Of a DNA stretch of 60,642 bases, positions 19,681 through 57,957 are shown in pieces. Below the pieces are notes generated by a model. That model ran no database searches and had not been told where the DNA came from. It saw nothing but the letters and a program-made list of their open reading frames with translations. Positions within the stretch are counted from its first letter, which is position 1; each line of letters starts with the position of its first letter. The translations under genes were made by a program, and so were the position numbers. This stretch comes from a virus (lineage: Duplodnaviria > Heunggongvirae > Uroviricota > Caudoviricetes), in the IMG/VR virus record IMGVR_UViG_2721755676_000007; one strand, given 5' to 3'.

Positions 19681-19754
19681 TATGAAAAGACAGGAAAAAA
19701 TAAAATTTAAAAACAGTACATTACGAATGCTCAGACCTATCGTTTAAAGGAGTC

Positions 19755-19777
19755 GCAATACACACTGCAATACACGA
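19755..19777. repeat. Two direct copies of GCAATACAC(A/G) near the left end of the insert (candidate integrase arm sites)
   Basis: tcGCAATACACAcTGCAATACACGa; three copies of TGCAATACACA occur at the other end (30381-30434). Confidence 0.5.
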
Positions 19778-20107
19778 TTATTTATAAGATGAGCGGCATC
19801 CGTCATAAAGCTGGTGGATGCTTTTTCTATGCATATATGCACAGTTTTAGTGGGCGTTAATGTCGATATAGGGATCCCCATATCGAGATTGGATACCTGG
19901 CTTTTTTCCGGTTAACCTTTAATCAGGCTGGTGGGCTTTACCTGTTTTGTATGAGTGGTCATCATGACCATGTCATAACAAAAACCCCATATTCGTGGTT
20001 TTTCTGTGTCGGGCTATTCTGTCGTTGCTGTGCTGATTTGGCTGGTGGGCTGAATCATCATTACGGCGATGCAGCTATGTAGACGTTCCGGCCTCCTCAA
20101 ATTGAGG

Positions 20108-20245
20108 ATTGTGGAAGAATCAATGGGTTAGTCTTACTTTCCCGACATCCCCCAATGGGGGTTTTCGAAACAATCAATAGCTTAGGCTTACTTCCCCGAT
20201 TTCCTGCATTGCAGGTTTTCGAAATAATCAATGGGTTAGGCCATC
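20108..20245. repeat. 54-bp tandem repeat, about 2.5 copies, each unit containing a short hairpin palindrome
   Basis: AATCAATGGGTTAG / AATCAATAGCTTAG / AATCAATGGGTTAG at 20118, 20172, 20226; palindromes CCCCCAATGGGGG (20149-20161) and CCTGCATTGCAGG (20203-20215). Confidence 0.7.
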
Positions 20246-20489
20246 GTGCAATTTTGCACTTTGCCAGCCAGCGCAATGTCGCGTTATCAGTCCTCAGATG
20301 TGAGGGATGTAGCCAGCTTTTCCCCCAGTGGGGGATATCCAGCACCGACGGCTTAACTGTGCGTGCCAGCACAAGGTAGCCTTGAACTACTTACTGCATC
20401 CCATCTTACAGGCCGTGCCTTCCTGCTTAACTTTTTGCAATGCAACAAGTCAGCCAGCGCAATTTTGCGTTATCGGGAATATCAGCAAG

Positions 20490-20771
20490 TTACCGCCGCA
20501 ATCGTTCCGGCTTCTTCCACTGGTAAGTATTTTTCGCGCTCTCCCTCCGTTGTTGAGAACGGCGACGATATGCCAGCAACTCAAGGACTCTTGTTCGTAT
20601 GTTGCGCATATCCACGCCGTTAAGCTCAATACCGTCACGGCGCATCACCTCAGCCACTACACGCACATAATTATCTGCGGTCACGCTGTCCGGCTGCGTG
20701 GCCTGTTCGTCATGCTGCTTGCTGATTCCACAAGCACGGCGGATTAATCGCAGTATTTCGGATTCAGTCAT
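20490..20771 (-). CDS. Hypothetical protein (93 aa), satellite-encoded
   Basis: ORF downstream of the Nu1-like gene in the same orientation; no recognisable motif. Confidence 0.45.
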   Translation of the reverse strand: MTESEILRLIRRACGISKQHDEQATQPDSVTADNYVRVVAEVMRRDGIELNGVDMRNIRTRVLELLAYRRRSQQRRESAKNTYQWKKPERLRR

Positions 20772-20782
20772 AGCGTACTACG

Positions 20783-21337
20783 TTACTTATCTTTATTCGG
20801 CTGCAACTTATCCGGTACGTTTCCGGCAGTTTCCATCAGATAATCGGACAGCATCAGCGGTATGTTTTCGTCAAGTTTTGCGCATGCGTTACAGGCTCTG
20901 ATAACTTCTTTTTTCAGTCCATCCAGCATAGACGGCTTCATGTCGGGAAACTTCCTTGTCATGGCAAGCGGCAGGCTGTCCATGATTGAAGAAATCTGAC
21001 TCGCCAATTTTGAAAGCACGTATATACAAAACGCTGTATCAATAACGTCGCCGCGTTCGCGCTCGTTTTTAAGCTCCTGCGCCTCTGCCTGTGCTGTCAG
21101 CAATCTGATCCTGACTCGTAGAAGTTCATCATCATCAATCTCGCCTTTGTCGTCTGTAATCTGGTTAATTGCATTGCTAACCCGATTGTCTATTACGCTG
21201 GCAACATCATAAAACGCCTCGCGGCCTTTACGTTCAACGGGAGTCACTCCCCACTTGTCGAACGCTGTCGCACTTACACGGCAGCTTTGCGCCATGTTTT
21301 TTTTGTTCATCAGGTGCGATTTCATCAATATCCCCAC
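20783..21337 (-). CDS. Terminase small subunit homologue (Nu1-like), satellite-encoded
   Basis: C-terminal half aligns with lambda Nu1 (DTAFCIYVLSKLASQISSIMDSLPL vs ETAFCTFVLSRIAGEIASILDGIPL); sits about 120 bp downstream of the satellite cos; start may be the internal MNKKNM at 21310. Confidence 0.8.
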   Translation of the reverse strand: MGILMKSHLMNKKNMAQSCRVSATAFDKWGVTPVERKGREAFYDVASVIDNRVSNAINQITDDKGEIDDDELLRVRIRLLTAQAEAQELKNERERGDVIDTAFCIYVLSKLASQISSIMDSLPLAMTRKFPDMKPSMLDGLKKEVIRACNACAKLDENIPLMLSDYLMETAGNVPDKLQPNKDK

Positions 21338-21436
21338 TTAAGTAATGTTTCAGGTTGGTGTATTGGCTTTATCTTTTCCTTTTTATTCATAGAGATAGAG
21401 CGAACAACAAAACCACCACCAGCACCCGAAAAAGGC

Positions 21437-21502
21437 TCATAAATAGCGAAAACCCGCGAGGTCGCCGCCCCGTAGCCTACCGGATCACCGGAAAGGACCC
21501 GC
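21437..21502. other. Satellite cos site (cosN 12-mer at 21459-21470)
   Basis: 66-bp block with 4 mismatches to the prophage cos block at 34202-34267; contains the reverse complement of GGGCGGCGACCT; flanking cosB-side sequence differs. Confidence 0.8.
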
Positions 21503-21526
21503 CAGCCAGAGCGGGCCCTAATTTCA

Positions 21527-21910
21527 TCAACCAATCAGCTTATAGCGACCATCCCGTGCATTGCGGCGTACACGCTCAATCTTGAGGCATAGCGCCGCAT
21601 CTGGCTTTTTTGGGACAGGTACGCGGCAATATTCAGAAGCGCGAGGAATATTATTTATCCAGTCGATCACTTCACTTAAATACCAGGCCTTACGCCCTTC
21701 CGTAACCTGCACACGCTCCGGGAACTCTCCACTAGCCTCAAGGTTTAGCAGTGTACGACGACTCAGGGTTGTAATTTCCATCACCTGATTCATATCAACA
21801 AGGCGCTCGCTTAAACACATTTTGTCAGCGATAGCTTTTAATTCCTCTACAGCTGGATTCGGGTACATCATTTCGGCAATTGGCTTAAGGTCATTGTAAT
21901 CATTCTGCAT
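21527..21910 (-). CDS. AlpA-family HTH regulator (127 aa)
   Basis: C-terminal region ITTLSRRTLLNLEASGEFPERVQVTEGRKAWYLSEVIDWI resembles AlpA/excisionase-type HTH. Confidence 0.55.
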   Translation of the reverse strand: MQNDYNDLKPIAEMMYPNPAVEELKAIADKMCLSERLVDMNQVMEITTLSRRTLLNLEASGEFPERVQVTEGRKAWYLSEVIDWINNIPRASEYCRVPVPKKPDAALCLKIERVRRNARDGRYKLIG

Positions 21911-21921
21911 TGTATCCCCCT

Positions 21922-22263
21922 TTACACACGAGCCAGCGGCTGAACAGAAATACCTGAGCCAACAAACGCTGCAACCTTTACTGACAGTTCTTTAACAGAC
22001 TCAGGCCAGTTCAGAGCATCAACATTTAAGACACCTGTCTTATAGACCTGAGCCTGTGTTTTTTTCGCGGTGTCGATTTGTACAGCGGAAACATAAACCG
22101 CTTTACCTACGCTCGAACCATCCCATACCACCAGTGCACCTGTTGCATCTTCCTGCATCAGTGGCGTAAATGCAGGAATTACCCCTTTATTAGCTGAAAA
22201 TATCCCCAGCGTAGTCACCAGTGCTTCAGTGCCAGCCATGAGTTCAGTGTAATGAGTAGCCAT
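21922..22263 (-). CDS. Head decoration protein D paralogue, satellite-encoded
   Basis: 113 aa; aligns with lambda D over VWDGSSVGKAVYVSAV...YKTGVLNVDALNWPE vs [17 protein letters not shown]...[15 protein letters not shown]. Confidence 0.7.
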   Translation of the reverse strand: MATHYTELMAGTEALVTTLGIFSANKGVIPAFTPLMQEDATGALVVWDGSSVGKAVYVSAVQIDTAKKTQAQVYKTGVLNVDALNWPESVKELSVKVAAFVGSGISVQPLARV

Positions 22264-22272
22264 TGCTCCCCC

Positions 22273-23319
22273 TTAGCCAATGCGAACGGTAACAAAACGA
22301 TTGATGCGGGCCGGTATTGGCTGTGGTGCTGAATGTGTCTGCACATATTCAATAGCCGGATCACCAGGCACAATATAGTTTTTCGGTGCAAGTTCGGCTT
22401 TAGTCAGCCCCATTCGGATTAGCTCCGGATCCTGAATACCGCCATAGGCGACAATCCCCTGAAGAGCCGTATTGCCAAGCACCATCAAATCAGGATCAAG
22501 GAAATGTTTTTCTGTTCCGTCCTCGTCGGTATAACGCCCGCTGTAAACAACAATCGCAACATCGCCCATATACCCTTTAAAACTCACCGAATCACCAAGG
22601 TCTTTAAGGGCCGTTTCCAGTTCGGAATTAGAACCACGACGGGTATCCAAAGCCTCTTTTATCGCTCTGAATGAACGGTATTTCTTCCATACATTACCAC
22701 CCATAATGATGATATTAGTGACGCCCTCACTAAATTCTGCGTAGCTCTCAATATCATCATTTGGATCAAAAGTTTCTTTATCCTTACCTGACCACTCAGT
22801 ACCGCCAGACTGAGTGATGATATTTTGTGGTTTTATATTCCAGTCCAGCTCATAACGTTCAATACCATCGCCCTCAATGATATTTTTCCCCGTTGTGATT
22901 GCCTGAACAGCAAGCCATTCAATACGTGCACGAATAGCTTTAGCCTGATTTACAATCGCCTGTTTAACTTTAATATTACGCGCCCCAAAAGCATTGTATT
23001 GCTCAGGTGACACACCAGCAGGGCGCACAGCTAACTTATTTGGATCAATGCTGCTTTTCGGCTTCATATAACCTGGACGAATTGTTTTTGATTCGTATCC
23101 CTCATCTCGTGAAACTTTACTGCCCACCATAGGAGAGCAAAACGCCGCGATCGGGATATTTGGATCGTCGATCGTATCAAGAATAATGTCTCTCGATTCA
23201 AACATTACCGAGCGAGTGAAAAACAAACTGGTAAACAACGCATTTAATTTTTTTTGCACATCTTCAGCATTAGCCACCTGCACAAGCTGTGTAGGCGAAT
23301 ATAAATCAACCATACTCAT
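22273..23319 (-). CDS. Major capsid protein E paralogue, satellite-encoded
   Basis: 349 aa from MSMVDLYSPTQL; conserved blocks ITQSGGTEWSGKDKETFDPNDDIESYA and LDTRRGSNSELETALKDLGDSVSFKGYMGDVAIVVYSGRY match lambda E. Confidence 0.85.
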   Translation of the reverse strand: MSMVDLYSPTQLVQVANAEDVQKKLNALFTSLFFTRSVMFESRDIILDTIDDPNIPIAAFCSPMVGSKVSRDEGYESKTIRPGYMKPKSSIDPNKLAVRPAGVSPEQYNAFGARNIKVKQAIVNQAKAIRARIEWLAVQAITTGKNIIEGDGIERYELDWNIKPQNIITQSGGTEWSGKDKETFDPNDDIESYAEFSEGVTNIIIMGGNVWKKYRSFRAIKEALDTRRGSNSELETALKDLGDSVSFKGYMGDVAIVVYSGRYTDEDGTEKHFLDPDLMVLGNTALQGIVAYGGIQDPELIRMGLTKAELAPKNYIVPGDPAIEYVQTHSAPQPIPARINRFVTVRIG

Positions 23320-23530
23320 CCTCTTTACATTCATTACAAATAATTGTGAATATATTCTATTACCGATGTCTGCTATGCGAACACATGCAACCAAGTGCAA
23401 TGTTGTATAAAATATGCCGTAACAACTTCAGTGCTGATAATTCGTGTTAATGTATTTACTTCCTTTGGTCGGGATTTATGTAGCATGCCGGAAAATCTAT
23501 TTTTTTCCGGCATCTTTTTGTTTGCAGAAT

Positions 23531-23953
23531 TTAAAACGGTATATTATCGCCGTACGGATCATCATTCCCCGACTGTTGTTTTGCCCTGTTCAGTGCGTCA
23601 GTGGCCTGCCCCTGCTGGCCTTTTTTGCCGCCCGGTCGCGCCGTTCGCGCACTGATTACGCTGTCTGCGATAAGCTGCCAGCCCCGCCGCGTTTCGCCGT
23701 TCTGGCCTGTCCACTGGCTTACCTGCATGTTACCCGCCACGCTCACCAGTTCGCCTTTGTGGTGTTTTGCCAGTGCGTCGGCCTGTCTGCCAAACGCCAG
23801 GACGGATAACCACATCGTCGCCGTTCCGTCATCTGCCTGGCTGCACGGCAGGGGAACCGCCATACTCGCCATCGCCATTTGTGTCCCTTTGCTGGTGGTC
23901 TTTAACTGCGGGTCAGCCACCAGCCGCCCGTAAGCCGCTATCTGTGCTGTCAT
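23531..23953 (-). CDS. ssb: Single-stranded DNA-binding protein (SSB-like)
   Basis: 140 aa with OB-fold-like N-terminus, Gly/Gln-rich linker and acidic C-terminal tail ending DNIPF (SSB tip DDDIPF). Confidence 0.7.
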   Translation of the reverse strand: MTAQIAAYGRLVADPQLKTTSKGTQMAMASMAVPLPCSQADDGTATMWLSVLAFGRQADALAKHHKGELVSVAGNMQVSQWTGQNGETRRGWQLIADSVISARTARPGGKKGQQGQATDALNRAKQQSGNDDPYGDNIPF

Positions 23954-24264
23954 GCTGTCTGCTCTCCGGTTTTAACATTGATGGTTGTCACCTGTTCCGC
24001 TTCGGCAATCTCCCGTTCTGTCAGCGTGGCAAAGTTTGCCGCTGCTGTGGTCATAAATGCGCTTATCAGGTCGGGATGTTCCTTCGCGTATCCTGCCCGT
24101 GTGTGGTGGTCTATCGCTTTGATTGCCACCTTTAAGGAAAGCTCTGTCATGTCTAACGCTTTATATTTTGCCTGTGTTCTGTCTCTGCGAATTTTGGTCA
24201 TTTGTCGCCCCTGATTCATGTTTTCGGCTGGCATGTTTGTTAAGTGATTTTTATGTATGCGCAT
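23950..24264 (-). CDS. Hypothetical protein (104 aa)
   Basis: ORF coupled to ssb (ATGA overlap), immediately downstream of the iteron region. Confidence 0.45.
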   Translation of the reverse strand: MRIHKNHLTNMPAENMNQGRQMTKIRRDRTQAKYKALDMTELSLKVAIKAIDHHTRAGYAKEHPDLISAFMTTAAANFATLTEREIAEAEQVTTINVKTGEQTA

Positions 24265-24315
24265 TTATTTTCACCCCCCCTCGTTTAAAAAGTTTTTAGT
24301 TGTGCCTCCCCCCCC

Positions 24316-24537
24316 TCTACCCATCTACCCGAATGCTCATCATGTCAGTAATGGCGCCGCTTTCAGCGGGTAGATAGCTTTTTTGACTCCTCTACCTGCC
24401 GTCTACCCTGCTACCTGAAACTGATAAAATCAGGTAGAAGAGGTAGAGAGCTTTTATTAGCCTTCTACCTAGCCCTATACCCACTTATCATGTTGAATAA
24501 TATGCGTTTATTTCGTTCAGGTAGATGGGGTAGATGG
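24316..24537. repeat. Iteron array (GGTAGA / TCTACC repeats), candidate satellite replication origin
   Basis: At least 12 copies of the hexamer in both orientations immediately downstream of the primase gene. Confidence 0.7.
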
Positions 24538-24550
24538 CTTTTACAAAAAA

Positions 24551-26305
24551 TTATAAAAACGCGTCGCAATCGTCTGTTGTAATTGCGTTGGTCTGCGTTA
24601 CTCCCTTAACTTTTCGCGTAATATATTCATGCCCGTAAACTTTCGCCGCTGGCTTCATGGCCTTGCTGAACTCAGCCACGTTTAGCGGTTTGCTCCTGCC
24701 CGCGTATGCCATAAACGCCAGATAGACGCGGTAAAGGCTGTTCCTGGTCGTGTACTTCACTGAATCACCACCGCCACCCATCATCAGGCCGCGCGCTTCC
24801 TCCAGAAAATTCAGGAACTGGCAAAACTCAATAACCGGATCCGTCTGTTGCTTTATTGCCAGTGCTTCATCACCGTCACGCTGTTCCAGTAGTAAAGCCC
24901 GTGCCTTCTCAGGGTCGGTAAAGTTCGCCAGCAATCGGCGGATAATAACGGGGATTTCAGCCGCAATCTTTTCCGGTAGCTCCCTGTCTTTTTCGGCCTC
25001 ACTGACGATATTGTCGAAACGGAAAATCACGCGACGACGTGCCACACCTCCGGCCCGTTCGGTGAATATCATCGGGTTGTTGTTGGTCGCCAGCACCACC
25101 GCCCTGATTACCGCCGTGAAACGCTTTTCATATTTCGGGTTAATTTCCACGGGGTCGCCGCCTGTGATTTTCTTGATGCCCGTTCCTTCGCCTGTATATT
25201 TCGGCTGGTCAGCCAGGACGATAAGACGACTCCCGACAACCTGCGCACGTCCACCAGCATCATCAAGCGATGTCATTTCAGCGCTTACCGTGTTCTGTTT
25301 CCCTGCCAGAAGGCTGGCTATGTGTGTGAATGTACTTTTACCGCTCCCGCCGTCTCCGGTGGCCTCAATAAACATCTGCCAGTCGTACCGGTTCGCCATA
25401 ATCATGTACAGCGCGGCACATATACGCATCATCTTGCGCGGGTCTTTTCCGGCTGCGTGCTCAAGCCATTTATGAAAGTTTGGCGCGTTATCGCGGATGT
25501 TCTCCCCTGGTGCTGGTGGCGTGTACTCAATGCCGTTGTGCGTGGTGATCCAGTTCTCCGGCGTGTGCGGGGAAAATTCCCCCGTTTTCAGGTCAAGCGC
25601 ACCATTGGCGAACGGCAGCAAATCGCCAGACGGCTCGCCCATTGGTTCGGCAATAACTTTTAACGCTTCCACGGCGTTATTGATTACGCGCTTGCTGAAA
25701 GTGGCCCTGTGCTCTGAATAGATCGCCACCATTTCGCGGCTAAGTTCCATTGTGCTGACCGGACACCATACCCCGCCGCGCCATACGTGAACGATTTCAC
25801 TTTCAGGATGTACGCAAACGCCATCAAAGCGATCGGCAAGCAACTGCGCGCGCTCACTGTCCGCCATCTGCGAAAGTTGCGCCTTTTGCTTTACCGGAAG
25901 CTCAATGACCAGACCATCAGAAAGATTCTGGCGTTCACGGGCCAGATATTCGCGCCAGTTCTGCACCTCCTGGCCGTGCATACCCTCAGGATAAAAATTT
26001 GCATCCTGTACGCCTGCTGCCGCCAGCTTCTGACCAATCGCCTTTATCATTACAGGCGCAAGATATCCGGCCCTGTATATGCGTGCTGATTTTCGGCCTT
26101 CCGGCACAATTTGCAGATTATCCAGTTCGGATAGCTGCTGCTCCCCAAGCCACACAGGAGGCTCATTATCTCCGGCCATACGCGCATCATGTTCCTGCCA
26201 TTGTTTCGCGTGTGCCCAGGCATCACTACCCGCAAAAATAATTACTTCTGTTCCTTTGTGTTTTATGCCGCGTGACTGCTGTTTTACGTTCGGTGCCAGT
26301 TTCAT
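24551..26305 (-). CDS. P4 alpha-like primase/helicase (D5 family, Walker A GDGGSGKST)
   Basis: 584-aa ORF with P-loop NTPase core and phage/plasmid primase C-terminal-type architecture. Confidence 0.8.
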   Translation of the reverse strand: MKLAPNVKQQSRGIKHKGTEVIIFAGSDAWAHAKQWQEHDARMAGDNEPPVWLGEQQLSELDNLQIVPEGRKSARIYRAGYLAPVMIKAIGQKLAAAGVQDANFYPEGMHGQEVQNWREYLARERQNLSDGLVIELPVKQKAQLSQMADSERAQLLADRFDGVCVHPESEIVHVWRGGVWCPVSTMELSREMVAIYSEHRATFSKRVINNAVEALKVIAEPMGEPSGDLLPFANGALDLKTGEFSPHTPENWITTHNGIEYTPPAPGENIRDNAPNFHKWLEHAAGKDPRKMMRICAALYMIMANRYDWQMFIEATGDGGSGKSTFTHIASLLAGKQNTVSAEMTSLDDAGGRAQVVGSRLIVLADQPKYTGEGTGIKKITGGDPVEINPKYEKRFTAVIRAVVLATNNNPMIFTERAGGVARRRVIFRFDNIVSEAEKDRELPEKIAAEIPVIIRRLLANFTDPEKARALLLEQRDGDEALAIKQQTDPVIEFCQFLNFLEEARGLMMGGGGDSVKYTTRNSLYRVYLAFMAYAGRSKPLNVAEFSKAMKPAAKVYGHEYITRKVKGVTQTNAITTDDCDAFL

Positions 26306-26601
26306 TTTTTACCTCTGAATCCGTTAATCATGGTTTTCATTTTCTGGATATTTCCCCACGCTTTTTCCCTGCTGATGGGCTTACTGCGGGGTGCGGCATA
26401 TACCAGGGAAAAATCACGCCGGAACTGATAAACAGGCATCACGCAGTCATAGCTATACCCCTCACGGCGGTAAGTGATGCGCCGTTCTGCCACGCCTTTA
26501 ATCGTTACCGTGCCGCCGTATTTATCGCGGTAAATATCGCCGTTCATAAATTCAGGTCGAGCGGGGCCGCTGGCAATAAAGCCAGAATTTTTCATTTCCA
26601 T
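26302..26601 (-). CDS. Hypothetical protein (99 aa)
   Basis: ORF coupled to the primase start (overlap at 26302-26305). Confidence 0.45.
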   Translation of the reverse strand: MEMKNSGFIASGPARPEFMNGDIYRDKYGGTVTIKGVAERRITYRREGYSYDCVMPVYQFRRDFSLVYAAPRSKPISREKAWGNIQKMKTMINGFRGKK

Positions 26602-26618
26602 ATTATTTATTCCTCGAC

Positions 26619-26840
26619 TTAACTCGACTTATTTGATAGCAGGGCACTATTTATTGCGTCATTGAGTTTTTCTGCTGATTCATCAATAAGTGACAACAGG
26701 CCATAAGCAATATTTGCATCTTCATTGTCATTTATGCAATCAAGCCACATATTTAATATTGCTTTTGCTGAATTATTTAAAGTTAATGAACTTTCTGCAC
26801 ATGCTAACAATTTAAAAAAGACTTCCCGTTCTGTATTCAT
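26619..26840 (-). CDS. Hypothetical protein (73 aa)
   Basis: Small ORF in the same operon orientation. Confidence 0.4.
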   Translation of the reverse strand: MNTEREVFFKLLACAESSLTLNNSAKAILNMWLDCINDNEDANIAYGLLSLIDESAEKLNDAINSALLSNKSS

Positions 26841-27032
26841 TTAATCCCCCACCAGCTTACTTTCTTCCTCAATCAAAAAACTAGCGACACTTCCCGAAAG
26901 ACGCGCCAGTAGGCTCGCCAGTGCGGATATATCAGCATCTGTAATTTTGTTCGGGTATACCTCAAGAAGGCGGCAAATAATTTCTGTCTGGTGCGCACGT
27001 TCAGCGGCTTCGTGTAATGTAATTTCCTGCAT
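26841..27032 (-). CDS. Hypothetical protein (63 aa)
   Basis: Stop/start overlap with the next ORF at 27032. Confidence 0.4.
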   Translation of the reverse strand: MQEITLHEAAERAHQTEIICRLLEVYPNKITDADISALASLLARLSGSVASFLIEEESKLVGD

Positions 27033-27217
27033 TAATGCACCTCTTTTAATTCATACACTGCTGAAATAATGACTTGTGATAAGCCATATTCTGATGATTC
27101 GCTTCTCACCGCAGCAATAGCCGTCTGAACATTAACAGCCTTCACATTCTGAGCGATACCAATTGTGTGGCCTATTGGGTTAACAGCTCGGGCAAATACA
27201 CGGAAGGTTTTAAGCAT
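27032..27217 (-). CDS. Hypothetical protein (61 aa)
   Basis: ATG preceded by GGGAG-type Shine-Dalgarno; first gene of the leftward operon. Confidence 0.45.
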   Translation of the reverse strand: MLKTFRVFARAVNPIGHTIGIAQNVKAVNVQTAIAAVRSESSEYGLSQVIISAVYELKEVH

Positions 27218-27597
27218 GACTCACTCCCTGGCGGATTTTTGCAGCGAATACAGCAACACAACCGGACGGGCAACGGCTACGCGCTTCGCGTTCCGTCCAG
27301 GCGGTTACGTGGATGATTTGAGATTCTCCGGCACTCAGTGCCAGAAAACGCCACACAAAGGCCGTTTGTGTGTGTACAAGGTGTGGTATATGATTTACAG
27401 CAACCATAACGGCTCCTAGTTTACGTTGTTGGTTAGACGCCCCGTATGTGTTCCCAGCACTGCGGGGCGTTGCTCTTTGTATTTCAACAATCCTTTCGGT
27501 GTGTTTCATGTTATGAGCGCATGAAACACACGTCAAGGCTTTTTGTATTTCTTTTTTTGTGTATACTGAAACACACCGATGATTAGGAGTTTCAGAA

Positions 27598-27903
27598 ATG
27601 GCAACGGCTAACAAAAACGCAAAATCACAACTGACAACTGTCAGAGTCCCACTAGATGTTATGCAAGGGATGGAATCCGTTAAGCTGGACGGTGAAAGCA
27701 ATGCCGGATTTATCGTAACCGCCATGCGCGGAGAAATAGCCCGCCGCCAAGCAGAAGGCAGCGGAGAAAATCCCCTTGTGTCGTCACTGGATGCCCTGGC
27801 TAAGGTCGAACAAATCGGCATCAAAGCAGCCGAGGAGATCGGGCAACTCGTCACCGTCGCGCGTGAAGAACTCCAGCGACGCAAGGTCAAAGAGCATGAA
27901 TAG
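27598..27903 (+). CDS. Small DNA-binding-like protein (possible ribbon-helix-helix), the only plus-strand gene in the satellite
   Basis: 101 aa; AGGAG 8 nt upstream of ATG; divergent from the small-ORF/primase operon across 27218-27597. Confidence 0.5.
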   Translation: MATANKNAKSQLTTVRVPLDVMQGMESVKLDGESNAGFIVTAMRGEIARRQAEGSGENPLVSSLDALAKVEQIGIKAAEEIGQLVTVAREELQRRKVKEHE

Positions 27904-28236
27904 CCAATATCAGCGCCATAGTTTGAGGAACGCAGGCGCATTGCTTTACAGGACAGCACCATGAGCGACACAGAATCAACCAAAACACCATCACCAACTC
28001 GTAAGAGACGACGCAAAAATATAGCGCATGAACATGAATCAGAAAGATTCGCACCTTGTTCGTTTGCTCTTGAGAAATTCCTTAAAGAGCACAGGAAAAA
28101 GCTCTCGTTGCAAACCTTGGAACGAACCAAATCTGGCTGATCACATTGCCCACCAGCCGCAAATGTGGCATTGTTGGTGATGCTTTTGTTTTCCCTTGTT
28201 CCCACTGGCGACCCTTTTGCGGTCGCCTTTGTTTTG

Positions 28237-28560
28237 TCACTGAATGCGGTTACCAAAGTAAAACTCAGGCTGATATTCACGTATCAGCGTTTTTTCTTCT
28301 TCCTCCAGCTCACGCTTTTTGCGCTTACATGCCTGTAGCTCCCTCCCCTTCTCGCTGGCACTTATTTGATATTGCTCTTTACGGCGGGAAAAATCCTGTA
28401 ATGCACCCCACGGGATACCATAAGTCCCCGTTTTTCTGATACCTGGTATCACATTTCTGAATACCCAGTTACTGAAACGATGAGCAAATGTGCCAGGCGT
28501 CGTTGCTTTGCGGCTGCGGGCTATTAGTTTGTAGAAACCTGACTCAGAGATAATTCTCAT
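28237..28560 (-). CDS. Bro-N domain protein, C-terminal part (split ORF)
   Basis: SESGFYKLIARSRKATTPGTFAHRFSNWVFRNVIPGIRKTGTYG is the second half of a Bro-N domain. Confidence 0.6.
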   Translation of the reverse strand: MRIISESGFYKLIARSRKATTPGTFAHRFSNWVFRNVIPGIRKTGTYGIPWGALQDFSRRKEQYQISASEKGRELQACKRKKRELEEEEKTLIREYQPEFYFGNRIQ

Positions 28561-28814
28561 ATTCTGATTTCCTCCTGGGTGTAAGTTAAATTTACTCCCT
28601 TTTCATCATCATCAAGCATCTGCAACGCCGTACGCGAATTGGTTAGTTCCAGCGCAGCACAAACATCTTTTGCAACAAACCACGGATCGCCGTTCAGATA
28701 CACCACACGAACGTTCACACTATCAAAGCGCAGAACGACGAGATCACGAATATCGCAGAATTTTTTCACTGGACGAGCGTACCCCTTGCCCGTCACGGCA
28801 ATATTTTTATTCAT
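28557..28814 (-). CDS. Bro-N domain protein, N-terminal part (split ORF)
   Basis: DPWFVAKDVCAALELTNSRTALQMLDDDEKG is the first half of a Bro-N domain; ends GGAGGAAATCAGAATATGA overlapping the next start. Confidence 0.6.
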   Translation of the reverse strand: MNKNIAVTGKGYARPVKKFCDIRDLVVLRFDSVNVRVVYLNGDPWFVAKDVCAALELTNSRTALQMLDDDEKGVNLTYTQEEIRI

Positions 28815-28870
28815 CGCGTTTTTACCTTATAGACAAAAAACCCCTCGTGATGAGGGGCATTATTTACTGG

Positions 28871-29128
28871 TTATTGCTGTTTTGTTTTTCCAGGTTTCCA
28901 TCCAGGATGCCACTCACCACGGATCCATGCCTGAACCTCTGAAAGTCGATACCCTGCAGCACGTTCACCGATCTTGATACGTCGCGGGAATTTACCTGCC
29001 TGCTCCATTTTCCAGCGTGTTGAGTTTGCCAGCGTGGTAAGTGCTATGCACTCTTTTTCACGAATGAACCGATCAATGTCCTTCATTGTGCGCAAATCGT
29101 TTTCATCAACAAGAGAATAAATTGCCAT
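28871..29128 (-). CDS. alpA: AlpA-family transcriptional regulator / excisionase-like
   Basis: 85 aa directly downstream of the integrase, typical P4/CP4-57-type int-alpA pair. Confidence 0.7.
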   Translation of the reverse strand: MAIYSLVDENDLRTMKDIDRFIREKECIALTTLANSTRWKMEQAGKFPRRIKIGERAAGYRLSEVQAWIRGEWHPGWKPGKTKQQ

Positions 29129-29129
29129 A

Positions 29130-30371
29130 TCACACCACCTCTTTATTAAGCTCGATAACGTTGTTGTTAAATCCTGCTATCGTATTAAGGTAATTAACCC
29201 ACATATTAAGCACCTCAAGTTTTTTCTTTATATGCCTGCTTTTATTGTAAACACCAGCAACCCCTTTCACTTTATGACCTAAAAGAAGTTCGACAATATA
29301 AGGATCCGCCCCCATATCATTAAGCGTAGTGGAAAATGTGCGCCTGAAATCATGTATGCACCACAAGCCATTAGTATCATGACCAAGACGCCTGCATATT
29401 CTGTTTGCAGCCCCTGTTATTGTCGCCCTTTGCAAAGCACAACCGACAACATAACCGCGATTTTTTGTTTCTGCGTAAAGATTAACGATCCATTGTTTTA
29501 TTCCGTCAGGAACAGGCCTTACTATAGCCTCCTTGTTTTTGCTGTGCTCTTTTGGGACTGTCCATACCCAGTTTTTTAAATCCCATTCGTCCCAGGTGGA
29601 TAGCCTCGCCTCCTGCTGTCGGCAACCAAACACCAGGCAGATAACCATTATTCTTCGGTTATATATTGATGACAGAGTTAGCAAATTATTACCGTAAGCA
29701 TAAGACCATACATCAGCGGTTTCATTGATATTAAGAACGCGATCCCTTATACCGGATGAGCGCCCGACATAACTTACGTTAATATCTCCAAAGGGATCGC
29801 ACGCGATGTATTGCCTGACGCGACAAAAACGCAACGCCTGTTTGATATCAAGAAAAATTGCACCAGACATAACAGGCGCATTTTTTTTGATCCTGTCAAA
29901 GACGGTAAGCCATGTGTGTAATTTGCACTGTTCTATAGCCATATCACCGATATAGGGGAAGATATGCTTTTCAAATCGTTTTATTAAATATTCATGCTCT
30001 TTTCTGGCTGTTGTGGCGTGATTGTCGTACCAGTAAAACAGCGCATCCCTTACGGTCACTGGTTGCATAGTTTTTTCGGCAGCAAGTTTTATTTGCCTGC
30101 GGGGGTCCAGATTTTCAGCCAGCCATTCACGGCACTGATCACGCATGCGCCTGGCCGTTGCAAGAGACATGTCAGGATAGCGACCAAGTGTAAGCCATAC
30201 CGGAGGGGATTCCCTGCCACCAAGACGATAGTAAAAAACAAAGCTGATCCCCCCAACCATGCTTACACGCACAGACAACCCGCGCCCATCCGCTATTGTT
30301 TTTTGTTTGTCCTGCCGTTTTCCGACAAGACTCTTTAACAGTTTGTCACTGAGTTTGTTTTCAATAGCCAT
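29130..30371 (-). CDS. int: Tyrosine integrase, P4-type
   Basis: 413 aa; N-terminal GRGLSVRV...GGISFVFYYRLGGR arm-binding-type domain; C-terminal HDFRRT...LLGH...Y catalytic signature. Confidence 0.88.
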   Translation of the reverse strand: MAIENKLSDKLLKSLVGKRQDKQKTIADGRGLSVRVSMVGGISFVFYYRLGGRESPPVWLTLGRYPDMSLATARRMRDQCREWLAENLDPRRQIKLAAEKTMQPVTVRDALFYWYDNHATTARKEHEYLIKRFEKHIFPYIGDMAIEQCKLHTWLTVFDRIKKNAPVMSGAIFLDIKQALRFCRVRQYIACDPFGDINVSYVGRSSGIRDRVLNINETADVWSYAYGNNLLTLSSIYNRRIMVICLVFGCRQQEARLSTWDEWDLKNWVWTVPKEHSKNKEAIVRPVPDGIKQWIVNLYAETKNRGYVVGCALQRATITGAANRICRRLGHDTNGLWCIHDFRRTFSTTLNDMGADPYIVELLLGHKVKGVAGVYNKSRHIKKKLEVLNMWVNYLNTIAGFNNNVIELNKEVV

Positions 30372-30380
30372 TAAAAGCCC

Positions 30381-30434
30381 TCAAGAGATTTGCAATACAC
30401 ACCCATCCCGATCGCCAATTTGCAATACACATTG
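30381..30434. repeat. Three direct copies of TGCAATACACA upstream of the satellite integrase (candidate arm-type sites)
   Basis: Copies at 30381, 30411 and 30424; same motif twice at the opposite end of the insert. Confidence 0.55.
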
Positions 30435-30571
30435 CAATACACAAAACCGCGAAAAACTGGAAGGGTGATGAACGGTCATCAAAAGCATGGAAAACGACAT
30501 TCCAGACGCAGCAAGGGTTTCAGTGGAGTTGGCGAACGATGCGGGCAACTACGGTGAGATGATAGACATAA

Positions 30572-40598: not shown

Positions 40599-40761
40599 GA
40601 TTCCTCCTTGCTGCCAGTCGCAACCATTTTTTATCAACCAGGCTGGCGGTATATCCGAGCAGAGTTGGTATTTCGGATGGCTTCAGCTCAGGTTTACGCT
40701 TACGACGATTTGGTACTTTGTAGATGTGTCCGTTCATGACACGAATAAGCGGTGTAGCCAT
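40591..40761 (-). CDS. ninE: NinE protein
   Basis: 56 aa from [28 protein letters not shown]. Confidence 0.8.
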   Translation of the reverse strand: MATPLIRVMNGHIYKVPNRRKRKPELKPSEIPTLLGYTASLVDKKWLRLAARRNHG

Positions 40762-41216
40762 TACGCCTCCTGCTTGTCGCGCAGCAGCTGAAACTCGCAG
40801 CTCTGTGGAATAGTCAGGTGGCAACCAATATTCATCGCCCAGGCTTCAACCTTACACAGGAAGACATACATCTCTCCGGTATCAAGATCGGAGGTATGGC
40901 GTAACGACTGGATAGTGGTGATATCACCGGTTACGACATCAACCAGGTCTTTGGTTTCATAACCGAGATATGTGTGTTTGAGAGCATCTTTTACCCAAGC
41001 TGGAGTAGCGAACGTTTTACCCTTGCTGATGAGGTATTCACTGATTTCGCTGTACCACATGTGGCTGAGTGCATTCTGGGAAAGACTGCGTCTCTCGCGC
41101 CACGGTTTAAGCACCATGCGAAAGCATTTGCCGTCCTCCAGATAAGGCTGGATCTGCCGACCGATAGCGGTGAAGTTACCGCGATGCAATTTGATACCAT
41201 CTTGTGGGAGGTTCAC
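40761..41216 (-). CDS. ybcN: YbcN (DLP12-type nin region protein)
   Basis: 151-aa ORF in conserved position upstream of ninE-ybcO-rusA. Confidence 0.8.
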
Positions 41217-41366: not shown

Positions 41367-41408
41367 TTAATTATGGCAAGTTGATTGTTGAAAATCAATT
41401 TAGTGGAT

Positions 41409-50956: not shown

Positions 50957-51529
50957 TCATATTGCCCCCAGCATGGTGGTAACCATCGCCATCAATGGAC
51001 CAGCCAGATCAGGATCCACACGAAACATCGACACAATGCCTTCACTCATCTCCTTCAGTTTCTGGTGGCGTGGTGCGTTGAGAATGACCGCCTGTTTTGC
51101 CTCGCTGAGCTCCTTTTCCATTTCAACCAGTCGAGCCATGAAGCTATCCTGCTCAACCAGGTGGCCGCGATATTTCAGCGGTAGTACTGCCAGAATTGCT
51201 GGAGTCAGTTCACGCACGTTATTTCGGTATTTTTCAGAATCGAATTTGTTATCGAGAAAGCGGAACAGCTTCTGGCGTGCACGACTGACATCATCAGGAA
51301 AATCGATAGTGCCGCCGCCCTGTGCTCGATACTCATTCACAATGAGTGCGGCAACGACATCCTGATTATCTACAGCCGACCAGGCGCGGACGGCATCACG
51401 GATTTTTTCGTGGCCTGGCACCTGTTTTATTTGAGAACGATTTATCACCGCAGTCGGGATAAATCCGCTAGTCTGTTGGTATGTAATTGGTTGCATAATT
51501 GATTCCTTTAGTCTGAATTGACTGTTCAT
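50957..51529 (-). CDS. YdaT-like protein (occupies the cII position)
   Basis: 190-aa ORF between the Cro-like gene and O; family assignment from memory only. Confidence 0.45.
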   Translation of the reverse strand: MNSQFRLKESIMQPITYQQTSGFIPTAVINRSQIKQVPGHEKIRDAVRAWSAVDNQDVVAALIVNEYRAQGGGTIDFPDDVSRARQKLFRFLDNKFDSEKYRNNVRELTPAILAVLPLKYRGHLVEQDSFMARLVEMEKELSEAKQAVILNAPRHQKLKEMSEGIVSMFRVDPDLAGPLMAMVTTMLGAI

Positions 51530-51577
51530 CAGTCTGTTAAGTTGATTGCTTATTGTTAAAGAACGTGAAAAGGAAAT

Positions 51578-51808
51578 TTAAGCTGCATTCTTTTCGGTAT
51601 GTGGAAACAACTTCGGAAGATCCGGGCGAATCTGGTATGCCTTAACTACCCCGCCAGTAGCCGTAACAATGCTGCCGACATGTTCAGGGGATACCTTTGC
51701 TTTGTTGTGTAGCCACTTATAGACGGCCTGCTGTGAAACTTCGCAGGCATCGCCCAGTTTCTTTTGTGAACCGACGATATTGATCGCGGTTTTGATTGCT
51801 GGGTTCAT
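51578..51808 (-). CDS. cro: Cro-like HTH repressor (YdaS family)
   Basis: 76 aa with HTH (LGDACEVSQQAVYKWLHNKAKVSPEH), divergent from the CI-like gene. Confidence 0.75.
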   Translation of the reverse strand: MNPAIKTAINIVGSQKKLGDACEVSQQAVYKWLHNKAKVSPEHVGSIVTATGGVVKAYQIRPDLPKLFPHTEKNAA

Positions 51809-51912
51809 AACAACCTCCGTGGTTAACTTGAATTAAGATTAAAACCATGGTTGTTTTTAGTCAACAACCATTTTCGTTTGATGAAATAAAACCTTGGTTG
51901 TACATTTGGTCT
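51809..51912. promoter_or_regulatory. Divergent immunity promoter/operator region (OR-like)
   Basis: Palindromes AACCATGGTT (51843-51852) and AACCTTGGTT (51891-51900) plus CAACAACCAT half-sites between divergent cro and cI starts. Confidence 0.55.
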
Positions 51913-52602
51913 ATGAAAACAACACTCTCAGAAAGACTTAAAGAAGCCAGATTAGCGCGAGGCCTTACACAAAAGGCGCTTGGGGATATGGTCGGGGTTA
52001 GCCAGGCTGCCATTCAGAAAATCGAAACAGGGAAAGCTAACCAAACAACTAAAATCGTGGAGATCGCAAACGCTTTAGGTGTGCGCGCAGAATGGTTATC
52101 TTCTGGCGTTGGAAATATGTCAGACAGTACCGTGCAACCAATACAATCAGCTGTCAGCCATTCAAAATACTTCAAGATTGACGTTCTTGATATAGAAGTC
52201 AGTGCCGGACCGGGTGTCATCAACCGTGAGTTTGTGGAAGTTCTACGCTCGGTTGAGTACTCGTTTGACGATGCTCGTCACATGTTCGATGGCAGGAAGG
52301 CGGAAAATATCCGCATCATTAACGTGCGCGGTGACAGCATGTCAGGGACGATCGAACCAGGTGACCTGCTGTTCGTTGATATCACTGTTAAATCTTTCGA
52401 CGGTGATGGCATCTATGCGTTTCTGTACGACGACACTGCCCATGTAAAACGTCTTCAAATGATGAAGGATAAGCTGCTGGTTATCTCTGATAACAAGAGC
52501 TACTCGCCGTGGGACCCGATCGAGAAAGACGAGATGAACCGGGTGTTCATATTCGGTAAGGTCATTGGAAGCATGCCGCAGACGTACAGGAAGCATGGTT
52601 AA
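51913..52602 (+). CDS. cI: CI-like repressor (HTH_XRE plus S24 LexA-type autoprotease domain)
   Basis: 229 aa from MKTTLSERLKEARLARGLTQKALGDMVGVSQAAIQKIE; C-terminal GDSM Ser and conserved Lys. Confidence 0.85.
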   Translation: MKTTLSERLKEARLARGLTQKALGDMVGVSQAAIQKIETGKANQTTKIVEIANALGVRAEWLSSGVGNMSDSTVQPIQSAVSHSKYFKIDVLDIEVSAGPGVINREFVEVLRSVEYSFDDARHMFDGRKAENIRIINVRGDSMSGTIEPGDLLFVDITVKSFDGDGIYAFLYDDTAHVKRLQMMKDKLLVISDNKSYSPWDPIEKDEMNRVFIFGKVIGSMPQTYRKHG

Positions 52603-52831
52603 TTTATCTACGACTTAAGGGAGCGAAGGTTAAGGTTTATACCACTCGGATTAGATATTGCACTAAATTCTCTATAAGAACGCCAAATCTGTTTGCATAT
52701 TTCAGTAAATATTCTCGTTGTTAGCTGAGATTTGTTGCTACTGTCAGCAAAATGTCCCCCTATCTCGTAGCGGTTTTTATTTCGAATCATTATGTTAAGA
52801 TGTTTCTGATTATAATGAATGGAAACATAAA

Positions 52832-53212
52832 ATGAGAAAAATCCTAATCGCTGCCATGATGGCATCTCTATTGGCTGGGTGTGCTTCTTCAGGCAACCAG
52901 CAACTCAAAAATGAAACTGAAATTAGTGTCCAGTCTAAACTTCAGGAAGGTAAAACAACCAAGAATGAGGTTAAATCTTACTTTGGTTCTCCTGATGCTG
53001 TTTCATATACTGACAGTGGAAACGAGATCTGGAAGTACGCCTTTGCAAAAGTAAAAGTTAATGGCACCACTTTTATTCCATTCTATGGATTATTCCATAA
53101 TGGAACGAACGGTACGAAAAAAGAACTTACTATTCTTTTTAACGATGACACGATTAAGAAATACACAATGTCAGAAACCCAAATAAACTCGAAATCAGGT
53201 TGGGCTGACTGA
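52832..53212 (+). CDS. Lipoprotein (126 aa) downstream of cI, at the position of lambda rexAB
   Basis: Signal peptide with lipobox LLAGC; followed by an intrinsic terminator. Confidence 0.65.
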   Translation: MRKILIAAMMASLLAGCASSGNQQLKNETEISVQSKLQEGKTTKNEVKSYFGSPDAVSYTDSGNEIWKYAFAKVKVNGTTFIPFYGLFHNGTNGTKKELTILFNDDTIKKYTMSETQINSKSGWAD

Positions 53213-53220
53213 TAATCATA

Positions 53221-53247
53221 CCCGGCAACCGCGCCGGGTTTTCTTTT
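53221..53247 (+). terminator. Intrinsic terminator after the cI-lipoprotein unit
   Basis: CCCGGC-aaccgc-GCCGGG followed by TTTTCTTTT. Confidence 0.65.
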
Positions 53248-53372
53248 CCTCCCCCTCATAACTCATACCGTCCAAAAAACCACCACACCTCACTTCAGTT
53301 ATCGCTATGCGATGCAAGTCACAAAATAAATCCATCCTAAATACAACCAGTTATATTTAAAACAACCGACAA

Positions 53373-53415
53373 AACAACTTTTGTTGTTGACGATAAAACA
53401 ACTATAGTTTTAAAT
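53373..53415 (+). promoter_or_regulatory. Candidate pL-type promoter with overlapping operator palindrome
   Basis: AACAAC-tttt-GTTGTT palindrome (53373-53388); -35 TTGACG (53387-53392), 17-bp spacer, -10 TTAAAT (53410-53415). Confidence 0.4.
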
Positions 53416-53488
53416 AAATTCATCGCAACGACACAACGATACGGTAACCACCTGTTTCACCGTTGCGATGACCGCTTAGATCCGCAGT

Positions 53489-53899
53489 TTGAATTTCAGC
53501 AGGCTTCGGGGAGTGCGAGGGGTGAAACGGACGCGTGAACGTCGGTGTGACCAGCTGAAATCAACACAACACTTTATACCTCAGTCGCTTCAACGAGGCG
53601 GCTTAGTTATGACAACCGGCGGCCATCCACCGCCTGAATACGCGCAGAAGTCTCTATATGTTCAGCAGCCCAGCTTACGGGCAGGAGTTTTTATGGTTCA
53701 TCAACATTACGGAACGCAGACCGTTAATCGCGGCGCGGTCATGCCAGGAATGCTGGTCAAACACAAAGATGGTACCTGGACTGCATCAGCTAATTTACGC
53801 GGGCGGCTTTATCTGCATCGCGGCATCGAGCGCACTTATACCCGTGATTTGCTCGTAGAAGTTTTTCTCGACGGACGCGGTAACGGCCTGAATCACTAA
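53489..53899 (+). CDS. Hypothetical protein with N-terminal arginine-rich motif (possible N-type antiterminator); reading frame uncertain
   Basis: KRTRERR near the N-terminus resembles the N-family ARM; remainder has no N-like features. Confidence 0.3.
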   Translation: MNFSRLRGVRGVKRTRERRCDQLKSTQHFIPQSLQRGGLVMTTGGHPPPEYAQKSLYVQQPSLRAGVFMVHQHYGTQTVNRGAVMPGMLVKHKDGTWTASANLRGRLYLHRGIERTYTRDLLVEVFLDGRGNGLNH

Positions 53900-57909: not shown

Positions 57910-57932
57910 GCCGCCTGATGGCGGTTTTTTCT
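57910..57932 (+). terminator. Intrinsic terminator upstream of xis
   Basis: GCCGCC-tgat-GGCGG followed by TTTTTTCT. Confidence 0.55.
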
Positions 57933-57957
57933 TGCGTGTAATTGCGGAGACTTTGCG

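Follow-up and report, generated by a model that had tools for sequence, protein, structure and literature searches.

A probable lambda-like immunity switch with a YdaS-type Cro and a phi80-type protein in the cII position

The proteins YdaS and YdaT have been published as the Cro and CII analogues of some lambdoid phages (PMC8630535, PMC9986795, PMC5917428), a view that the study of prophage CP-933P credits to Casjens 2003 and Jobling 2018. In CP-933P and Rac they belong to a module together with the repressor PaaR2 or RacR, and these repressors were reported to be without sequence similarity to CI (PMC8630535). Jurenas et al. (2021) observed that YdaT raises the activity of the promoter PRE933P and pointed out its homology to phi80 CII (PMC8630535), and Prolic-Kalinsek et al. 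(2023) solved the tetrameric helix-turn-helix (HTH) structure of YdaT, footprinted the box TTGATT-N6-AATCAA and showed that Arg60 in the recognition helix of CP-933P YdaT is important (PMC9986795); tetramer formation and the activation of a promoter directed into the repressor gene are known only for the YdaT proteins of CP-933P and Rac. The locus described here occupies positions 50957–52602 of IMG/VR record IMGVR_UViG_2721755676_000007, a stretch of Caudoviricetes DNA of 60,642 nucleotides that was analysed at its full length and is referred to as the window. It carries a cI repressor gene, a cro gene of the YdaS family and a gene of the YdaT family in the cII position, and is very probably the lysis/lysogeny immunity switch of a lambda-like prophage, which follows the lambda design with another specificity and with partly non-homologous parts. 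As such it belongs to an already known and very common type of heteroimmune lambdoid switch.

Essentially the same module is found in the Escherichia phages PhiR26_1, PhiR34_1, PhiR5_1, PhiR47_2, Turner and IdasGreatGrand, whose DNA is 94–95% identical to that of the window; their CI proteins are 98.7–99.1% identical, the genes are annotated as cI, Cro and cII, and the divergence amounts to a few per cent. Phages with this module are plaque-forming, with E. coli K-12 or C as the listed hosts. Phage phi80 resembles the locus in its gene order (cI-OR-cro-cII-O), in its CI with HTH and S24 domains and in the presence of an accessory gene between cI and OL. However, its CI is only 24% identical, its Cro is barely similar (gene 30, the phi80 cro, scores just under the cutoff of the YdaS model) and its operators are unrelated. 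Furthermore, phi80 has N, nut sites and a 30-bp gap with a hairpin between cro and cII, whereas in the window no N-like open reading frame (ORF) follows the predicted leftward promoter pL and the corresponding gap measures 81 bp. The CP-933P and Rac modules share with the window the Pfam families in the Cro and CII slots, but their YdaT is only ~28% identical to the protein in the cII slot, the TTGATT-N6-AATCAA box is absent from the cro-ydaT segment, and the repressor encoded here is a full CI-type S24 repressor.

Gene layout and protein families

The three ORFs of the locus were found, in the ORF list and in the sequence itself, where a first-pass annotation made from the letters alone had placed them. 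The repressor gene cI (51913–52602, plus strand) encodes 229 aa and diverges from cro (51578–51808, minus strand), which encodes 76 aa and is preceded by a GGAGG ribosome-binding site. The two genes flank, as had been described, a gap of exactly 104 bp between the cro ATG at 51808 and the cI ATG at 51913. The cI ORF itself opens at 51847, but ATG 51913 is the start chosen by RefSeq and in all annotated relatives; the upstream ATG at 51847 (251 aa) was rejected, as it lies inside OR1 and serves as the start in no annotated relative. The cro gene is the first of the PR-side operon, divergent to the repressor gene, and is directly followed by the cII-slot gene (50957–51496, minus strand), which in turn precedes O, the order on the minus strand being OR - cro - ydaT - O - P. 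Between cro and the cII-slot gene extends the 81-bp spacer (51497–51577, minus strand) in which a PRE-type promoter or a YdaT site would be expected, and the neighbouring genes encode lambda-type O, P and Gam proteins according to Pfam. An ORF of 190 aa, reaching 51529, is indeed present in the cII position, but as the length of the protein 179 aa is likelier than the 190 aa given at first. Translation most likely starts at ATG 51496, because of its AAGGA ribosome-binding site, the usage in RefSeq and the lengths of the homologues, more than 100 of which have 179–180 aa and begin with MQ/MH..L.YQQ at the equivalent residue.

The CI protein consists of an HTH_3 domain (Pfam, E 2.5e-13, residues 9–62) followed by a Peptidase_S24 domain (1.2e-18, residues 95–218). 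The S24 domain, which the first-pass annotation had named as a difference from lambda, is therefore present but does not set this repressor apart, since lambda CI is composed of HTH_3 and Peptidase_S24 as well. In an alignment with the CI proteins of lambda, phi80, 4A7, BTP1 and the Klebsiella phage ST101-KPC2phi6.1, the residues Ser142 (in GDSM) and Lys179 (in VKRL) fall on the GNSM and FKKL motifs of lambda, which contain Ser149 and Lys192 of lambda CI. The pair Ala98-Gly99, within EVSAGPG, is placed immediately ahead of the S24 domain. The combination of HTH domain, S24 peptidase, Ser/Lys dyad and Ala-Gly site identifies the protein, by its motifs, as a self-cleaving repressor of the CI/LexA type.

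The description of Cro as YdaS-like was confirmed by Pfam model PF15943 (E 6.6e-17; 61.5 bits, the cutoff being 30), in addition to weak matches to the Pfam family P22_Cro and, in the PDB, to the Cro protein 3bd1. The Pfam models of lambda Cro (PF09048) and lambda CII (PF05269) matched neither of the two window proteins; as controls, the same models gave 119.5 bits for lambda Cro and 163.8 bits for lambda CII. Among the PHROGs families, CI falls in a family named 'transcriptional repressor', Cro in the 'transcriptional repressor' PHROG 35, and the cII-slot protein in PHROG 163, 'CII-like transcriptional activator' (1.5e-64).

The membership of the cII-slot protein in the YdaT family, originally a tentative assignment, is borne out by a match to PF06254 (E 3.2e-28; 98.5 bits, the cutoff being 21), and profile searches have in this way upheld the family assignments of all three proteins. 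In tblastn searches of phage genomes the protein was 64% identical to phi80 CII across 179/180 residues (E 6e-90), 66% identical to mEp237 CII and 51% identical to the CII proteins of HK225 and HK639; phi80 CII in turn reaches 98.7 bits with the YdaT model. By sequence, the cII-slot protein is the phi80 type of CII, within YdaT family PF06254. A single sequence of the protein matched the solved YdaT structures weakly (E about 1e-3), and a profile of 27 sequences reached YdaT (PDB 8bt1) with an E value of 8.8e-9. The AlphaFold model, of moderate confidence (pLDDT 71.7), is all-helical with residues 1–25 disordered, and the only PDB structures that matched it were 3c4r and 8bt1 (probability 1.00, target-normalised TM 0.66–0.71). 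In the model an HTH (POU-like) domain leads into a long helix, which is the arrangement of the solved YdaT structures. Residues R72, R74, Q75 and K76 are invariant among the 27 homologues, and the consensus 'sRaRQK' is aligned with 'LARNTQK' of 8bt1, the conserved recognition-helix arginine being present.

Operators, promoters and the seat of specificity

The AACC-N2-GGTT palindromes reported for the gap between cI and cro were located at 51843–51852 and 51890–51899 and are the sole two matches in the 60.6-kb window. The count itself is not significant (~1 match is expected by chance per window), but the expectation within the 104-bp gap is ~0.002 and the presence of both copies inside this one gap is significant. 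The palindrome turned out to form the interior of a longer operator of 14 bp with the conserved arms A[A/C]AAC and GTT[G/T]T. An inverted-repeat search joined the OR sites to sequences 1.5 kb off, at 53337–53413, and the full motif A[A/C]AAC-N4-GTT[G/T]T is matched perfectly at only four places in 60.6 kb, of which OR and OL hold two each. The motif was derived from these same sites, so that the match count alone is circular; three independent supports are provided by the placement of OL, the alignment of PR with pL and the conservation in the Klebsiella phage.

The OR1-like operator AAAACCATGGTTGT (51841–51854) matches the motif perfectly and lies in the spacer of the predicted PR. The OR2-like operator ACAACCATTTTCGT (51864–51877), with a weaker right arm, abuts the -35 elements of both predicted PR and PRM, while the OR3-like operator AAAACCTTGGTTGT (51888–51901), again a perfect match, overlaps the predicted PRM. 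The centre of OR2 is 23 and 24 bp away from those of OR1 and OR3, respectively, and at about -42 relative to the cI start. The two OL operators on the plus strand, ACAACTTTTGTTGT (53374–53387) and ACAACTATAGTTTT (53398–53411), are perfect matches 24 bp apart and sit where the lambda design predicts them, past the accessory gene on the cI side and its terminator and before kil-gam-bet-exo. The sequence ACAACCTCCGTGGT at 51810–51823, over the ribosome-binding site of cro, agrees with the motif in 9/10 positions; it is off the 23–24-bp register and was not counted as an operator.

The promoter positions were read by eye and from the alignment of PR with pL. They comprise a predicted PR on the minus strand (TTGACT-17-TAATCT, 51836–51864), a predicted PRM on the plus strand (TTGATG-17-TACATT, 51878–51906) and a predicted pL on the plus strand (TTGACG-17-TTAAAT, 53387–53415), the latter under the OL operator pair. 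Predicted PR and pL can be aligned nearly base for base (GTTGTTGAC..AAAACAAC....GTTTTAA). No ribosome-binding site was seen ahead of the cI ATG at 51913, and the -10 element of PRM ends 6 nt before it, for which reasons the cI mRNA is probably leaderless. Leaderless repressor mRNA was found by 5' RACE for PaaR2 of CP-933P and is known for lambda (PMC8630535).

The Klebsiella phage ST101-KPC2phi6.1 has the cro, the cI (77% identity) and the operators of the window, with identical OR and OL spacing, in cro-cI DNA that is 76% identical to the window. Within four 14-mers 52/56 positions are identical between the two, against 27/48 (56%) outside them. In OR1-3 none of the 30 arm positions differs between the two and the spacing is the same, while the centres vary, and OR2 (ACAACCATTTTCGT) is identical in 14/14 positions. 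The operators of the window are also carried by PhiR26_1. The Klebsiella phage differs in having a 73-aa lambda-type CII (PF05269) in place of YdaT and rexAB in place of a lipoprotein gene. Because the same cro, operators and cI are thus paired with a CII of PF05269, the comparison of sequences supports the notion that lambda-type CII and the YdaT-type protein are two families in one functional slot.

A blastn comparison of the whole window with lambda 1–40500 agreed with the earlier view of the flanks as lambda-like in int, xis, exo, bet, gam and the structural genes, with identities of 87–98% in the structural genes, 93% in P and the C-terminal half of O, 97% in gam-bet-exo and 98% from xis-int up to the attP core. 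No nucleotide similarity to lambda was detected across 50408–53892. The CI is 23% identical to that of lambda, Cro and CII show no meaningful similarity to their lambda namesakes, and identity to lambda in cI and operators was not seen on alignment, all in line with the claim that the immunity specificity is not that of lambda. Moreover, the operator motif has no perfect match within the lambda immunity region, and Cro PF09048 and CII PF05269 of lambda are replaced here by PF15943 and PF06254 proteins. Homologues of N, cIII, rexAB, ral and sieB were not found in the 50408–53892 segment. As judged from these sequences, the region is heteroimmune to lambda. The original label 'not lambda-type' therefore applies to the specificity and to the Cro and CII families but not to the circuit design, which is shared with lambda in the divergent PRM and PR over a tripartite OR with 23–24-bp spacing, in the matching OL and pL and in the predicted leaderless cI.

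The replaced segment starts just past five O-binding-type iterons and ends at the kil/gam junction. The iterons (TTACCTGATTCGGGTAA, at 50401–50519, 19–29 bp start to start) are unlike those of lambda, and homology to lambda breaks off (window 50407 = lambda 39119) precisely where the lambda iteron array ends, so that the N-terminal domain of O and its origin were exchanged along with the immunity segment. The extent of the specificity determinants becomes apparent from two further phages. Phage 4A7 (Bievrevirus) carries the YdaT allele of the window (95.5%) and agrees with the window in the C-terminal domain of CI and in the pL leader, and the Salmonella phage BTP1 shares the CI C-terminal domain but has the 4A7-type N-terminal domain and operators, and carries a lambda-type CII and an N gene. 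Both differ from the window in the CI N-terminal domain, cro and the operators and lack the motif, which makes them heteroimmune. Because 4A7 and BTP1 combine the same CI C-terminal domain with a different N-terminal domain, cro and operators, the specificity can be assigned, at the sequence level, to OL and to the segment from cro over OR to the N-terminal domain of cI. Classical imm regions show the same pattern, and the YdaT gene lies outside this core.

Predicted mode of action and competing explanations

In a lysogen, CI dimers would be bound to the 14-bp operators at OR1, OR2, OL1 and OL2, in what we take as the predicted order of occupancy, and would shut PR (cro-cII-O-P) and pL (kil-gam-bet-exo). 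CI on OR2 would in addition stimulate PRM, giving rise to the leaderless cI mRNA, and OR3 would permit negative autoregulation of cI. Upon DNA damage, RecA-stimulated self-cleavage of CI at Ala98-Gly99 through the Ser142/Lys179 dyad would lead to induction, and the YdaS-type Cro would act on the same operators to lower the activity of PRM. In a newly infected cell the YdaT-type protein, as the orthologue of phi80 CII, would be the establishment regulator and would activate, close to where cro and cII meet, a weak antisense promoter directed into cI.

Several observations weigh against this scheme. Box, repeat and motif searches found neither a DNA site nor a PRE-type promoter for the YdaT-type protein, and because of this we infer its establishment role from homology and gene position. 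The right arm of OR2 is poor, and a strict consensus scan, which gave three hits, did not pick out PR, PRM or pL. Finally, the prophage looks defective, with its portal gene split by a 10.9-kb element and with insertion sequences (IS) present, and therefore this copy may serve only as a repressor/immunity locus.

The stretch between the start of cro and a point 250 bp inside ydaT was searched for a YdaT site in the window and in the phages PhiR26_1, 4A7 and phi80, and no TTGATT-N6-AATCAA box was found there with spacers of 4–8 and up to two mismatches. Over the whole window there are 40 matches at up to three mismatches against 35.7 expected, which is chance level. Because the cognate box is absent and the identity is only ~28%, the sequence places the cII-slot protein outside the CP-933P/Rac YdaT subgroup. 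A perfect 8-bp inverted repeat, GATTTATC-N11-GATAAATC, at 51439–51465 within the 5' end of ydaT was considered as a YdaT site and ruled out, its left arm being different in PhiR26_1 and 4A7 and no copy being present in phi80. No shared non-coding motif emerged by k-mer or alignment analysis from -300 to +200 of nine phi80-type cII loci, at whose 5' end 6/32 third-codon positions are invariant. The 80 closest viral contigs with this YdaT have only two types of upstream sequence (37 window-type and 43 4A7-type) and are therefore of no help to motif discovery. The 81-bp spacer between cro and the cII-slot gene is not conserved in 4A7 or phi80, where about 30 bp with a hairpin take its place, and is 12 bp shorter in PhiR26_1.

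Near cro/cII there is no lambda-type CII box (TTGC-N6-TTGC), which occurs only at the lambda-derived pI. There the box (TTGCGTGTAATTGC) is kept at 57932–57945, just upstream of the xis ATG (57958) and within the 98% lambda-identical int-xis block, in a prophage without a lambda-type CII protein; it may have been orphaned through recombination or be used by something else. A perfect CP-933P YdaT box, TTGATTGTTGAAAATCAA, occurs at 41381–41398, where ~0.004 perfect copies per window would be expected by chance, between a hypothetical gene (41409–42191) and ybcN (40761–41216) in the DLP12-like nin region. Its link to the YdaT-type protein of the window, only a distant relative of CP-933P YdaT, is unproven.

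With no PRE or target site found here, the YdaT-type protein might not be a lambda-CII-like activator at all and could have another job, such as repression or autoregulation of the PR operon or the control of host genes. In CP-933P, YdaT has its strong site downstream of where PRE is proposed to be and is termed a repressor by the authors, and the YdaT of Rac occupies a site across the start codon of its own gene and regulates host operons (PMC11879457); the prophage described here, moreover, has no cIII and retains the orphan lambda-type CII box at pI (57932–57945). We nevertheless regard such a different job as unlikely, since the activity of PRE933P goes up on YdaT overexpression (PMC8630535), the closest named relative, phi80 cII, is annotated as 'CII decision making protein', and the cro, cI and operators seen here are accompanied in another phage by a lambda-type CII in the same slot. 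The idea that ydaS and ydaT are a toxin or a toxin-antitoxin pair and not switch regulators comes only from the Pfam and RefSeq names ('Bacterial toxin YdaS/YdaT') and from cited reports of toxicity upon ectopic expression. It is extremely improbable for two genes that lie exactly in the cro and cII slots, from OR to O, in plaque-forming phages and encode HTH DNA-binding proteins, both without a PADLOC match; in published tests YdaS and YdaT displayed regulatory activity and no toxin-antitoxin behaviour.

As regards specificity, the closest relative of the CI N-terminal domain is the 434 repressor, with which it forms a gapless alignment (residues 2–65 of the 434 repressor, E 4e-10, 24/64 identical by our own count), and the operators of both phages are 14 bp long with ACAA-like outer arms. 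Three of the five operators, ACAACTTTTGTTGT among them, fit on both arms the 434 consensus ACAA-N6-TTGT. A specificity equal to that of 434, or cross-reactive with it, is very improbable all the same, given an identity of only ~38%, the recognition helix (QQSIEQ in 434 against QAAIQK, with only the Gln28 equivalent kept among the base-contacting residues) and the operators, which have a fixed C/G at position 5 and its partner and in two cases carry AAAA in one arm. Besides, 434 differs in its fixed inner operator positions, its Cro is of the HTH_3 type whereas that of the window is of the YdaS type, and no 434 record was among the DNA-level matches. Since only the first of the base-contacting glutamines of 434 is kept, cross-immunity with 434 is unlikely from the sequence. 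A lambda-like switch with a specificity of its own, with YdaS as Cro and a phi80-type CII, remains the reading that we favour.

Neighbouring features, frequency and meaning

Between cI and OL lies an accessory gene (52832–53212, plus strand) with an LLAGC lipoprotein-type signal and a weak BamE/SmpA-like match, named BamE in RefSeq and followed by its own terminator (53220–53239). At this place lambda and the Klebsiella phage carry rexAB, BTP1 has BstA and phi80 has 40A, and the lipoprotein gene may have a superinfection-exclusion or other accessory function, although PADLOC gave no defence-system match for it, nor for the outer-membrane-protein gene described below. Downstream of pL extends an untranslated leader of ~270 nt (53416–53692, plus strand) into kil (53693–53899), which opens with a stable hairpin at 53420–53471. 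From the window to the heteroimmune 4A7 this leader hardly varies, while the operators just upstream of it are unrelated. It bears no convincing similarity to the HK639 putL-like RNA, and Rfam found nothing across 48.5–56 kb; the changes in the leader hairpin between relatives are pair-breaking, not compensating. Conceivably the module runs its early programme without N, cIII and a lambda-type CII, with the pL leader as a cis-acting antitermination RNA like put of HK022 but of an undescribed sequence type, with a phi80-type CII that acts through a so far unknown DNA site, and with the lambda CII box at pI either orphaned or bound by the phi80-type CII; we hold this scenario as a whole to be distinctly improbable.

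On the other side of the switch, a possible oop/M3-like antisense hairpin (50907–50941, plus strand) is found between the ydaT stop and the O start, at the position of the annotated phi80 M3 RNA, the HK639 M3-like RNA and the lambda oop RNA; it has no clean U-run and the evidence for it is weak. The O ORF, as listed and as given in RefSeq, starts at 50960 and overlaps the ydaT stop. It is probably 30 codons too long, with the start at ATG 50870, because the O proteins of lambda and phi80 align from there and a GGGAGG ribosome-binding site is present. A start at 50870 frees an 86-bp gap, which holds the antisense hairpin.

The element of 10.9 kb (19681–30566) lies amid the lambda-like portal gene B, the lambda homology being continuous across it (lambda 3658/3670), and its junctions share ATCGCCTT. 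It encodes a P4-type tyrosine integrase (29130–30371), AlpA (21527–21910), a D5_N/DUF5906 primase-helicase (24551–26305), a major-capsid-E-like protein (22273–23400) and a Nu1-like small terminase (20783–21337), and looks like a capsid-forming, PICI-like phage satellite in the portal gene of a potential helper. Its right junction was also seen in 63/5426 complete E. coli genomes. The nin region is DLP12-like and not lambda-like, as emrE and ybcK lie beyond an outer-membrane-protein gene (48003–48752); this gene, on the opposite strand, splits ren, which in a near-identical genome is given by RefSeq as two pseudogene fragments. Two insertion sequences are placed in the nin region: an IS3-family element at 46267–47540 with HTH_Tnp_1 and rve ORFs, at which ~1336 bp are missing from the otherwise 99.9%-identical NZ_AP022215, and a second one at 42825–44033 with a 402-aa DDE_Tnp_1 transposase.

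The full 1.75-kb region matched 2226 of 5426 complete E. coli genomes, and in 1503 of them most of the region was present; strain WP8-S17-ESBL-05 is 99.9–100% identical to it. The specificity core, from cro over OR to the CI N-terminal domain, was found at 95% identity or more in 1510/5426 complete E. coli genomes. The region can be understood as the result of routine mosaic lambdoid evolution, in which the specificity determinants (cro, the operators and the CI N-terminal domain) were swapped within a conserved design. For this immunity type the operator sequence and the arrangement of its copies have now been laid out in full, and the Klebsiella phage, with the same cro and cI and a lambda-type CII, offers a natural case of two unrelated proteins in one slot. 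What is very probably the immunity switch of a prophage type present in ~28% of complete E. coli genomes is masked by the names 'toxin YdaT' and 'S24 family peptidase' given in RefSeq and Pfam.

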